The notes below the pieces were generated by a model that was given only the letters and a program-made list of their open reading frames with translations, was not told where the DNA came from and ran no database searches. The translations under genes were made by a program, and so were the position numbers. A stretch of DNA of 64,000 nt from an uncultured delta proteobacterium. GTDB lineage: Bacteria > Myxococcota_A > Polyangia > Palsa-1104. Positions 5,412 to 30,936 of this stretch are shown piece after piece (the stretch's first letter is position 1; each line of letters starts with the position of its first letter). The stretch covers positions 160,001-224,000 of the forward strand of contig CAWAWS010000039.1 in assembly GCA_963785725.1 (NCBI GenBank), in the 5' to 3' direction.

Positions 5412-5476
5412 GACGGCCGGTTCCTCGCTTGTGCGGGCCGTCGATGATAATCGACGCCGCGCGCTCGTCGATTGCG

Positions 5477-7323: not shown

Positions 7324-9256
7324 ATGCCGCAACCTGCGGTGCTCCACATCATCGGGGGCAACGATCGAGGGAAAGCGTACGAGCTGGTTCTGCCGGAGAC
7401 GCGCATCGGACGCGGCGCCGATCAAGATCTCGTGCTCGCCGACATCGCCGTCTCGCGTCGCCACATCACGATTCATGCGGAATTGGGCCGTTATCGGCTG
7501 CAAGATCTCGGCTCCGGCAACGGCACCTTGCTCAACGGCACGCGCATCGACAGCGTCGTCTTGAACGACGGCGATCAGGTCGAGCTTGGCAATACGTTGA
7601 TGCGGTTCGATCATCAGCCGTCGCGGCAGCCGAGCTTGTCGGGGCAGGCGGCGATCGGTCCGCCACCGCCGGCGCCGCCGCCGCCCTATCCGTCGGTGTC
7701 GGCGCCGCCGTCGCACCCGAGTGGGAACGGCAACTACACACCGCAGCCGCCGCCGATGCAGTCGGCCGGCTACGGCGCGGCCAACGGCGACACGCCGTCG
7801 CAAGTGCAGTCCGTCGGCACGGGCGCGGCGCGGCCGATGGTGCCGCTGCTGCACGCCGAGACGATGCCGCTGCCGGCCGCGCTGGCGCCGCTCGGCGTCG
7901 CCAACAATCGGCTCATCGCCTTCGGCATCATGGGCTTCTTGTCGCTGACGTCGATCATCGTCATCATCACGAAGTCGGCATTTTCGAAGCCGATCATCGT
8001 CGCCAGCGACACCGAGGAGCTCTATCGCCAGGGCCTGAAGCTCTTCGCGGCCAAGGATTACGAAGGCGCCAAGCTCGCCTTCACCGACGCGCTCACGTCC
8101 GCGCCCGAGTCGAGCGAGGTCAAGCACTACATCGTCGCCTGCGACACCGAAGTGCACGCGCGCGGCGCCATGCAAGCGGCCGAGCGCGCGGCGGCGAGCC
8201 ATCGCTACGCCGAGGCGGTCAAGGCGCTCGACGCCGTCGACTCCGACGCGCTCGTGCACGACGACGCGATTCGGCGGCGCAAGGAGCTGGCGCCGAAAGC
8301 GGCGGCCGATGACGTCGAAGAGGCGCGCGGGCTGCAGACCGAAGATCCCGACACGGCGCGGGCGCGGTTGACGCAGGCGCTGGCGCTCGATCCGGGCAAT
8401 CCCGACGCGCGAGCGCTGGCGGGCAAGCTGCACGTCGACTTGCCGCCGCTGCCGGCGAACACGGTGGTGACGACGCCGTTCGAGCAGCCGACGCCGCCGG
8501 TGGTCGCGCCGGCGCCGATCGTGCCGGTGGCCAAAGAGCCGCCGCCGGTGAAGGTGGCGCCGGTCAAAGCCGCGCCACCGTCGAAGAAGGGCAAGGCTGC
8601 GGCGCGCGACGACGACGACTTCGCGCCCGTCAAAGCGGGCAAAGGCAAAGAGGCGGCGGCGGCGAAGGAGGCCGCGCCGTCGGCGCAAGGCATGGCGGCG
8701 TACAAGGCGCGCGATTTCGCGACGGCCGAGCGCTTCTTCCGCATCGAGGCGCGCAATCAGCCGGTCAAGCAGATGGAGAAGACGATCGCGTTCGCCAACC
8801 AGGTGCGCGATTTGAAGGGCGTGGTCGATCGCGCCACGGCCGACGAGGCCAAGAGCCCGACGGCGGCGATCAAGGATTACGAGGACGCGATCGCCATCGA
8901 CGGCAAAGTCGGCAAGGGCATGCACGCGGCCTATTTCCGGCAGCGGATGGGCAAGCTGCAGCTGCCGGTGGCGCAGGCGGCGTTCGCGGCCGGTCGCTAC
9001 GAGGCGGCGTTCGCGGCGGCGCTGTCGGCGCAGCGCGCCGGCGCGGGCGACGGCGGCGTCTTGAAGGCGCTCGACAGCCAAGGCGAAGGAACTGACCGAC
9101 AAGGGCGTGGCCGTGCAAAAGACGCAGCCGGCGCAGGCGAAGACGTATTGGCGGCAGGTGATCAAGATGGTGCCGACGACGTCGCCGACGTATGTGCGCG
9201 CGTACGGGTTGATCAACCAGGCCGGCGGCGCGCACAAGGACGAAGACGAGGACTAG
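7324..9256 (+). CDS. FHA domain, Pro-rich linker, TM and TPR-like protein; frameshift near 9080
   Basis: FHA motifs IGRG, VSRRH, DLGSGNGT; TM helix IAFGIMGFLSLTSIIVII; helical TPR-like repeats; the shifted frame continues KAKELTDKG..YWRQVIKMVP..KDEDED to stop at 9256. Confidence 0.8.
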
Positions 9257-9315
9257 ATCGCGCGCGCGGCTCGTTTGATTGGGTGCGCGATTACTAGCGG
9301 TTTACGGCTCGGCGT

Positions 9316-9471
9316 GAGCGCGCGGGCGGGCTGTGCCCGCGCGCGCTCGCGCTCCGTCGCGCCGGCCATCGGCGGATCGCGCAACAGCAGTCGAGGGTTA
9401 TCGCGGGCTTGGTCTCGCAGCGCCGACGTTCGCCCCCAAGCGCACGTCACGCGACGAGCACAGGTTCGGCG
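9316..9471. repeat. Dispersed structured intergenic repeat, copy 1
   Basis: Ungapped match to copy 2 (offset 20752): gctccg.cg.gccggcca.cgg.ggatcgcgcaac-N19-gggcttggtctcg.agcgccgacgttcgcccccaa-N14-acgagcacag; hairpin at 9316-9348. Confidence 0.9.
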
Positions 9472-9498: not shown

Positions 9499-10120
9499 TT
9501 ACGGCGCGCGCAGCTTCTGCCACGCCGGATGCCGCTCGATGAGCGCGAGCGCCTGCCGCGTCAGCGTCTTGCCCGGCTCGACGTGATACCAAGTCGACGC
9601 GCCCGACGGATGCGGCAGCGGGATGACGTCGATGGCACGTCGGCCGTGCTTCCACGCATGCGCCTTGCCGATCGTCTCCGCCAGCGGCGCGTCCGCCATG
9701 AAGCGCGCGATCGCCAGCTTGCCGACGGGCATCGATCAGCTCCGGCCGGCACAGCTCGAGCTCGCGATCGAGCCAGGGCGCGCAGTTGTCGATCTCCTCC
9801 GGCGACGGCACGCGGTCGCCGCCTTTGGGATTCTTGCCCGGGAAACAGCGACAAACAGCCGACATATAAACGCTGGCACGGAACGCTTCCTCGTCGAGCC
9901 CGATGCTGCCGAACCACTTGAACAGGTTGCGTCCGGCCGTCCACGCGAACGGCTTGCCGGCGATTGGCTCCTTGTCGCCCGGCGCTTGCCCGACCATCAG
10001 CACCGGCGACACCACCGGCCGACCCATCACGACCGGCTTGAACATCGACGGACAGCGCGTACACGCCGCCAGCTCCGCCTGATGCGCGACGACGAGCTTG
10101 CGCCGCTCGGCTTGATTCAC
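9499..10120 (-). CDS. Uracil-DNA glycosylase superfamily protein (family 4-like, Fe-S Cys); frameshift near 9733
   Basis: CTRC, VGQAPG..E, VCRCFP, NC and LPHPSG motifs; GTG start overlaps the aguA stop. Confidence 0.88.
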
Positions 10121-25351: not shown

Positions 25352-25508
25352 GTGTGTGCCGAGCGCGTGACTTTGCAGCTGGGGGCGAACCGCGGCGCTC
25401 CGAGACGCCGATGGCGATAAACCAAGCACCGCGGCGCCCCGATCCGCCGCTGGCCGGCACGACGGAGCTTCGGCGCGCGTGCCCACCGGGCACCTGCCGC
25501 GCCGAAGC
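25352..25508. repeat. Dispersed structured intergenic repeat, copy 3 (inverted relative to copies 1 and 2)
   Basis: tgggggcgaac..cggcgct.cgagac ... cgatccgccgctggccggcacgacggagc matches the reverse complement of copies 1 and 2; hairpin at 25467-25508. Confidence 0.85.
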
Positions 25509-25745
25509 CGCAGGACGACCGCTCAGCCGATGCTGCTCGTGGCGAAGGTCGCGTCCGCACGAAGACGCTCGCCGAACGCTCGCCCGAGTGTGTGTGAACG
25601 CCGACAGGAGCAACTTTTGGCCGGCGAACGCGATAATGGGTGGGCGGATGGGGGAAATCCGTCGAGCCCACCATCCTCTGGAATCGGCCGATCTTCCGGA
25701 ATCGATCGTCGCCGCTGCCCCGCCCGCCCGCCCGCTCGCCGTCCG

Positions 25746-26252: not shown

Positions 26253-28499
<2,247 letters not shown>

Positions 28500-28566: not shown

Positions 28567-29931
<1,365 letters not shown>

Positions 29932-30068
29932 CAGGCGGCAGGCCGCAGGTCGGTCGGCCGCGCGACTCTGCGCGGTCGGTTCGTTCGCTTCCGAGTGTGA
30001 CGGCTGTTGCGGCTTGGACGGGGGTCGGCGGTCGGTTCGTTGCCGGAGGGGTTGTCGACCGGCGCGGA

Positions 30069-30223
30069 CGCAGCGGGCGCCCGGTGGGCGCGCTGCGGCC
30101 GAGCTCCGACGGGCCGGCCAGCGGTGGATCGCGCAACGGTGTGGTTGGTTTATAGAGGGCTTGGTCTCGAAGCGCCGACGTTCGCCCCCAAACGCGGAAG
30201 TAGAAACGAGCACAGCGTTGGCG
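30069..30223. repeat. Dispersed structured intergenic repeat, copy 2
   Basis: Colinear with 9351-9463; hairpin cgcagcg-gg-cgccc-ggt-gggcg-cgctgcg at 30069-30097. Confidence 0.9.
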
Positions 30224-30297: not shown

Positions 30298-30936
30298 CTA
30301 GGCGATTTCGCGTTCGAGCTGCTGCAGGTACTGACGCAGGAATTCGCTGCGTTCGCGCGCCATGCGTAGCGCCGTCGCCGTGTGCATGCGATCGCCGACG
30401 AGCAGCAGCTTCTTGTAGAAGTGGTCGACCGCGAACTCCTTGTCGACGGGCGCGCGCTCGCGGCAGAACGGATCGTCGACGGCATAGAACGGCCGGCCCA
30501 TGACGGCGGTCGTCGCGAAGCAGCGCGCGATGCCGATGGCGCCGATGGCGTCGAGCCGGTCGGCGTCCTGCAGCACGCGCGCCTCCAACGTCTCGGGCAC
30601 GACGCCGCGCGAGAACGAGTGCACGCGAATGCAGTATTCGACGCGCGTCGCGAAGTGATCGTCGTAGCCGTATGCGCGCAACAGCGCCGCCGCTTCGTCC
30701 GCACACCGATCGCCGGACAGCGCCGAGTCGGGATGATCCTTCGGCAGATTATGCAGCTCGTGCAGCAGCGCCGCCGTCTCGACGACGTCGACGTCAGCGC
30801 CTTCGGCGGCCGCGATCGTGCGCGCGTGCGACATGACGCGGCGAACGTGCAGCGCGTCGTGCGCCGGCTCGGCGTTGACCACGCGGCCGAGCGCATCGTC
30901 GCGCAGCCGCGCAAACCGTTGGCGATCGAGCGACAC
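30298..30936 (-). CDS. HD-domain phosphohydrolase (YedJ-like; HE in place of HD)
   Basis: AHDALHVRRV, ALLHE, VHSFS, LQDADRLDAIGAIGIARCF and HFYKKLL. Confidence 0.88.
   Translation of the reverse strand: MSLDRQRFARLRDDALGRVVNAEPAHDALHVRRVMSHARTIAAAEGADVDVVETAALLHELHNLPKDHPDSALSGDRCADEAAALLRAYGYDDHFATRVEYCIRVHSFSRGVVPETLEARVLQDADRLDAIGAIGIARCFATTAVMGRPFYAVDDPFCRERAPVDKEFAVDHFYKKLLLVGDRMHTATALRMARERSEFLRQYLQQLEREIA

Follow-up and report, generated by a model that had tools for sequence, protein, structure and literature searches.

Positions 25379 to 25521 (minus strand) of the DNA analysed here hold one copy of a non-coding repeat of ~150 nt that belongs to a family of about 70 members in an uncultured soil bacterium, presumably a myxobacterium. 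The ~70 copies are dispersed in a single lineage, a search of 190 other genomes of the class found none, and the copies are located at gene 3' ends in both orientations; this behaviour suggests an interspersed repeat that has multiplied, and not a conserved RNA gene. The best explanation, which we put forward tentatively, is that the family spread as a non-autonomous mobile element, with a trans-acting protein recognising a GC-rich hairpin and the blocks adjacent to it as a single strand.

Repeat copies in the window

The window is the whole stretch of 64,000 nt that was analysed (C39:160001-224000), taken from an assembly of 8.89 Mb in 47 contigs with 67.9% GC and 88% completeness; coordinates without a contig name refer to it. 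It is rich in FHA, Ser/Thr-kinase and sigma-54-activator genes, which is compatible with a myxobacterium. A repeat search linked three copies, located at 9297-9439 (+), 30048-30191 (+) and 25379-25521 (-) and here named copies 1, 2 and 3, respectively, as the original prediction had stated for their number and strands. All three are intergenic and show 78% mean column identity when aligned.

Copy 1, with its hairpin (hairpin A) at 9311-9353, has its first base at the stop codon of an FHA/TPR gene (7339-9297), and beyond it lies a convergent small ORF (9499-9732, -). Copy 2, with hairpin A at 30061-30105, is flanked by a sigma-54 activator gene (28738-29931, +) and a convergent HD-domain gene (30298-30936, -). 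Copy 3 is found upstream of a metallo-beta-lactamase-fold gene, and was matched by the family profile at C39:185509-185373 (nhmmer) and by the family CM with 109.7 bits. It is composed of a 12-nt leader, hairpin A and a sequence-conserved core whose last block is CGCCCCCAG. Its hairpin A (25466-25509, -), seen in the RNA and DNA folds and in the family-wide covariation, contains a G-T closing pair, an 11-bp outer stem, a 4-nt bulge, a 6-bp inner stem and a GGT triloop. The 3' part (25379-25465, -), conserved as sequence, contains the blocks CTCCGTCG, CCGGCCA, GGTTTATCG and GCGCCG..GTTCGCCCCC. Elsewhere in the window a 39-nt unit is repeated seven times in tandem (27623-27943) within a Ser/Thr protein kinase gene (26253-28499), where it is coding and makes up part of the C-terminal region.

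Family size, unit and distribution

An nhmmer profile of the 137-position core, iterated to convergence, detected 71 copies genome-wide, 64 of them full length, and a CM built from these 64 gave 70 genome matches. The unit of ~150 nt comprises a weakly conserved, GCGGTTKNCGGC-like leader of 12 nt, the 43-nt hairpin and ~90 nt of conserved blocks 3' of it, namely CTCCGTCG, CCGGCCATCG, GGTTTATCG.GGGC, GCGCCGACG and CGCCCCCAA, among which GGTTTATCG is the sole AT-rich patch. The closest pairs of copies, segmental duplicates excluded, are 88-94% identical, and their shared similarity starts at most ~12 nt before hairpin A and ends at CCCCCAA. Mean pairwise identity of the core is 69%, with 11 columns invariant across the 64 copies, and CCGGCCA is nearly invariant across the family. 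The sole near-identical pair of the family is a 284-nt segment, made up of a repeat copy and an upstream tandem array, that is duplicated on the same strand 1.7 kb apart (C18:108324-108608 and C18:110075-110359, 98.6% identity).

CM searches detected no copies in 40 relatives, four of them of the same genus, or in another 150 genomes that represent 92 genera of the class. Even genomes of the same genus are distant, with 64-70% amino-acid identity in the neighbouring HD-domain gene. BLAST of one copy against the 40 relatives gave only short GC-rich partial matches, and the two that were inspected were without the hairpin-and-core architecture. Two pattern scans of 241 million metagenome records recovered one true copy, on a soil contig (L226). 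A literature search found no published family of such interspersed repeats in myxobacteria; Sorangium had the most species-specific repeats of 613 genomes according to a published survey (PMC3372372). It follows directly that a dispersed family of about 70 copies with sharp ends, restricted to this lineage, has multiplied there.

Hairpin A is conserved for structure

Hairpin A is real, strongly covarying and conserved for structure. In all three window copies it displays an outer stem, a GG-type bulge, an inner stem and a KGT triloop, and the claim that this architecture is kept while the sequence changes was borne out across the family. In an alignment fitted to the model, its 71 rows being 70 genomic copies and one metagenome copy, 94.9% of the hairpin A cells are paired, in contrast to 74.5% in shuffled alignments, and none of 500 shuffles reached the observed value. 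Both sides were changed in 15 of the 19 pairs of this alignment. The covariation score was 0.426, and 0.058 at most when the partners were slid by 1-3 columns. In an independent MAFFT alignment of 64 copies RNAalifold predicted hairpin A as the sole structure, with 14 of 17 pairs doubly changed, and the top six pairs by corrected mutual information, in an alignment made without structure, all fell within it. Against dinucleotide shuffles its mean z was -4.0, with z below -2 in 91% of 64 copies.

The original prediction also held that G-U pairs favour one strand, plus for copies 1 and 2 and minus for copy 3. On that strand hairpin A contains 28 G:T against 7 A:C pairs, counts that are non-independent because the copies have common ancestry, and which leave out the conserved G-T closing pair present in 58 of the 71 rows. 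The recurrent mismatches are purine-purine and form a conserved GGA/GGA internal loop. Both the G:T excess and the purine-purine internal loops fit a hairpin that acts as a single strand, and hairpin A probably does so on this strand, as RNA or ssDNA.

The metagenome copy allowed a comparison at one locus. The L226 contig, of 1,022 nt, is 90.6% identical throughout to C14:325754-326799, indicating that it comes from a related strain or species and corresponds to this locus. Between the hairpins of the two sequences, two pairs are exchanged with full compensation (outer G-C/T-A and inner A-T/G-C) and one further change gives a wobble pair, and the 16-nt core blocks are identical. The C14 copy carries a 30-nt insertion in the hairpin 3' arm that is missing from L226. 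Two other genomic copies have exactly the inner stem of L226, so that a conversion event with another family member as donor could produce the same pattern.

Exchange of hairpins among copies is also suggested by the stem types, which are common to both subfamilies defined by the 3' part (S1 and S2): the inner stem CGGGCTGTGCCCG was found 10 times in S1 and 6 times in S2, and CGCGCGGTGCGCG 5 times in each, so that the family is a mosaic. Whole-hairpin modules moving in this way, together with the L226 inner stem, are what would be seen if the covariation were a mutational by-product, generated by intrastrand template switching in palindromes or by conversion tracts across both arms, with no selection on the fold. 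We consider this improbable, since the GG bulge, the G-T closing pair and the GGA/GGA loop all persist, although self-templated correction would be expected to remove them, and conversion moves variants but creates none. The asymmetry of G:T over A:C would also be left without an explanation.

Outside hairpin A, conservation is of sequence

The original prediction described two further stems, hairpin B and stem C, because copy 3 by itself folds into A, B and C (RNA MFE -90.3 kcal/mol, z -3.57; DNA z -2.53). Both fall within the 3' part of copy 3 (25379-25465, -), and family support for them is absent. Hairpin B is 74.7% paired versus 75.7% in shuffled alignments, with 448 of 500 shuffles as high, and stem C, private to copy 3, is 52.1% paired versus 52.8%, with 459 of 500 shuffles as high. 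After hairpin A, the next 88 nt were no more stable than their shuffled versions on either strand (mean z +0.19 for the element strand, -0.12 for its complement). Stems B and C are accidents of one GC-rich copy, and the element outside hairpin A is conserved as sequence, without covariation or excess stability.

Conservation of the repeat for structure, as it had been proposed, thus applies to ~43 of its ~150 nt. Both checks that accompanied the proposal, covariation over all genomic copies and folding against shuffles, gave significant results for hairpin A and shuffle-level results for what follows it. The CCGGCCA motif, presented as the invariant loop of hairpin B, is a near-invariant sequence but not the loop of a supported stem. 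As to the suggested folded RNA or ssDNA, what is retained is a hairpin A that would act as a single strand, and not a three-stem folded RNA.

No Rfam family matched the window at the gathering score, and at E ≤ 1 five loci gave only three chance-level matches (E 0.06-0.7), with no plausible relative among the families named. A sigma-54-like reading of TGGTTTATCGCGGGC, which has GG and GC at the right spacing, was dropped by eye, given that the dinucleotides alone fit.

Copies are placed at gene 3' ends

The family is strictly intergenic and biased to gene 3' ends, in either orientation. According to our GC3-based gene calls (7,422 genes, 81% coding), no copy lies inside a confident gene call, and overlaps of more than 30 nt with a predicted ORF were limited to 2 of the 71. 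The neighbouring genes are convergent for 40 copies, tandem for 28 and divergent for 3, while the expectation from all gaps of at least 200 nt was 12, 36 and 23 (17%, 50% and 33%), respectively (chi-square p ~2e-19). Between tandem genes the element is in sense in 16 cases and in antisense in 12. The hairpin is not followed by a T-run, and no terminator-like sites were found on either strand around copies 1 and 3. Orientation showed no association with local GC skew, which is weak (p 0.2-0.6), although such an association might be expected of ssDNA transposition that is strand-specific.

The 3.4-fold excess in convergent gaps and the near absence from divergent, promoter-bearing gaps would be expected of a host RNA element of 3' UTRs. 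Such an element could be a terminator or insulator lacking a U-tract, or an obstacle to 3'-5' exonucleases by which the upstream mRNA is stabilised, its tail being a protein- or RNA-binding tag and its copies being selected in place. The preference for G:T over A:C on one strand, the two compensated pairs and unchanged core blocks between orthologs ~90% identical, and the columns kept invariant despite 69% mean identity also favour this explanation. However, a T-run after the hairpin is missing on both strands, neither orientation is preferred between tandem genes, the tail of 88 nt lacks a stable fold and no Rfam family matches; for a host regulatory RNA it is also unusual to be found in none of 190 other genomes of the class. 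A role of this kind is in our estimation unlikely, although it ranks second among the explanations.

A multicopy family of independently transcribed small RNAs would account for conserved blocks beside a stable hairpin and for an orientation independent of the neighbouring genes. However, no promoter-like or terminator-like site was found in or beside the two copies scanned, and the hairpin is at the 5' end of the wobble-favoured strand, hence it is not a terminator there. With the lack of an Rfam match and the restriction to one lineage also against it, we regard this as very improbable.

Tandem repeats and nested motifs

Tandem repeats accumulate on one side of the element. TRF loci with a score of at least 100 were found within 150 nt of the 5' side in 21 of 71 copies and of the 3' side in 3 of 71, and 18 of the 240 intergenic tandem-repeat loci of the genome are in those 5' windows, where ~2 were expected. 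Their units, of 19-31 nt or multiples, are locus-specific and mostly G-rich on the element strand; examples of such 5' flanks are C27:52481-52770, C7:396897-397130, C17:227497-227746 and C35:97652-97892. Two pairs of copies have an array in common, indicating that the array can be copied along with the element. In addition, four head-to-head pairs of copies from differing subfamilies enclose 220-300 nt of tandem repeats.

This one-sided distribution, the excess over the expected number of loci and the repeats enclosed by the head-to-head pairs could reflect a site that acts at the DNA level, where a nucleoid or replication protein would bind to the hairpin or a cruciform and to the conserved blocks (including GGTTTATCG), creating a polar barrier, and slippage at stalled forks would generate the 5' tandem repeats. 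Conservation of the tail as sequence and not as structure is also consistent with it. Nevertheless, the protein partner is postulated, arrays shared by some copies can travel with the element, the smaller intergenic room on the 3' side inflates the 5'/3' asymmetry, and a link to GC skew is lacking. We therefore give this explanation a low probability. A broader proposal, to which we attach an equally low probability, is that the copies, far from being decaying junk, are strand-specific signals, each a hairpin plus a sequence tag, kept by selection at the ends of transcription units and read by a lineage-specific protein, with a polar polymerase barrier spawning the 5' tandem repeats. If true, a mobile repeat would have given rise to a system of chromosomal punctuation.

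At least six copies contain an insertion of ~42 nt at one fixed position in the hairpin A 3' arm. The inserted sequence is a small dispersed motif, composed of a GTCGACTATCGTCGAC palindrome and then GGCCCGC..AGCGAGGAACCGGCC, which also occurs alone upstream of start codons. In the window it maps to 5415-5457 (-), directly before the ATG of a lipoprotein-like ORF and with a GAGGA core like that of a ribosome site; elsewhere in the genome it is found at C37:86862-86903, C4:149165-149206, C7:81097-81137 and, in tandem, C4:215558-215636. A second interspersed family, of ~90 nt and ~18 copies, has long inverted ends (GACAAAAYGGGCGCCAGC ... GCTGGCGCCCATTTTGTC) and is MITE-like (C14:284890-284978, C6:409744-409831, C27:40959-41052 and C9:15045-15123). 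Some of its copies are at most a few hundred bases away from a copy of the hairpin repeat.

Evidence on mobilisation

Copying through a single-stranded intermediate is the explanation we lean towards, with a host role at transcript 3' ends as the second, weaker candidate; the two are not exclusive. Under the former, copies would arise by transposition-like copying rather than by another kind of duplication, the hairpin would form in ssDNA (or RNA) as a recognition site, and a protein acting in trans could recognise it in single-stranded form together with the neighbouring conserved blocks. Copies would persist at gene 3' ends because insertions are presumably tolerated there. Those at 3' ends may be transcribed into 3' UTRs, where they could serve as hairpin transcript ends.

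The search for a mobilising enzyme gave no matches to Y1/RAYT (PF01797) in the 88% complete assembly, while control genomes were positive, and TnpB (PF07282) likewise had no matches in it. Iterated local nhmmer searches of the genome yielded only the 71 short copies, with no longer element or parent IS with related ends. The three window copies have no terminal inverted repeats in common, hairpin A being their sole common inverted repeat, and no complementary ends were seen in the family alignment. Among the genes between paired copies no transposases were evident from the first 60 residues of each gene call.

No paralogous empty sites were found in the genome, and no target-site duplication could be delimited. 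In the same-genus genomes the gap content at the HD-domain locus differs and, with the protein 64-70% identical, no boundary is readable; the orthologous metagenome locus (L226) is occupied. Contigs from four soil DNA runs included one from a related strain that spans copy 3, and the repeat piles up in depth, but no joint across an element, i.e. no empty site, was found in these runs. The closest pairs, at most 94% alike, give no sign of very recent copying. Conservation of the blocks at 69% mean identity and the compensated changes between orthologs fit selection in place, for a host function, equally well.

A guide/target idea, comparing the variable stem box of the hairpin with each copy's own flanks, was not convincing (15 reverse-complement matches versus 7.4 ± 3.8 in permuted data).

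Implications and comparison with known systems

The present results contribute a family of stem-loop interspersed repeats, characterised in detail, from a presumed soil myxobacterium that is uncultured. They also illustrate clearly that a comparison of three copies can be misleading, with one stem truly constrained and two being accidents of a GC-rich copy. The compensated changes between orthologs, the one-sided tandem repeats and the motif nested in the hairpin would make the family a useful system for the question of host-kept versus self-copying repeats. For annotation purposes, we recommend repeat masking of the 71 sites, which should not be reported as RNA genes.

Intrinsic terminators have a GC-rich hairpin followed by a T/U run, which is lacking here. 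Integron attC sites, defined by their R/L core sites, resemble the present repeat in that structure is conserved above sequence, extrahelical bases are present and recognition is of a single folded strand, as is probable here. Unlike them, the copies described here are single, dispersed and in both orientations instead of forming cassette arrays, and the hairpin makes up just a third of each unit. Elements derived from IS200/IS605 (PATE, omega-RNA) differ in their association with TnpA (Y1, PF01797) and TnpB (PF07282), neither of which gave a match in this assembly.

REP/BIME and REPIN-RAYT sequences of E. coli and Pseudomonas are likewise high-copy, GC-rich extragenic hairpins at gene 3' ends, and they too are thought to act as ssDNA. 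A conserved GTAG-type head is a REP motif, and none was seen here. The REP unit is of 20-40 nt or an inverted doublet, whereas a single 43-nt hairpin is followed here by a 90-nt asymmetric, non-palindromic tail. REPINs are inverted doublets that form one hairpin; the four inverted pairs of the present family, in contrast, lie 220-300 nt apart and mix subfamilies. Its copy number is also lower, and, unlike in REPIN-RAYT systems, where REPs usually flank it, a Y1/RAYT gene was not found in the 88% complete assembly. Long persistence within one lineage, as reported for REP/REPIN sequences, is common to both. One study also describes compensatory changes in REPIN hairpins, which are of the mobile kind, so that a hairpin kept by compensatory change is a further likeness (PMC3116915).

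ERIC/IRU, Correia/NEMIS, RUP and other bacterial MITEs are, according to reviews, also non-coding interspersed sequences of 100-200 nt with stem-loop potential as RNA or DNA. They are described as species-specific families that occur in either orientation in transcribed intergenic DNA, in which they resemble the present repeat. It differs from bacterial MITEs in having no terminal inverted repeats and in that no parent IS with related ends was found. BOX elements are composed of modules. The pneumococcal BOX and a minisatellite-bearing MITE of Porphyromonas gingivalis (PMC4596501) are similar to the present family in being modular and mosaic with a variable tandem-repeat part, but the tandem units described here vary by locus and lie outside the conserved core. 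Since REP-RAYT systems are set apart by the missing RAYT gene and the different unit, and MITEs by the missing terminal inverted repeats, we file the family as a stem-loop interspersed repeat; it is most likely a new family of this known, REP/ERIC/BOX-like bacterial kind.
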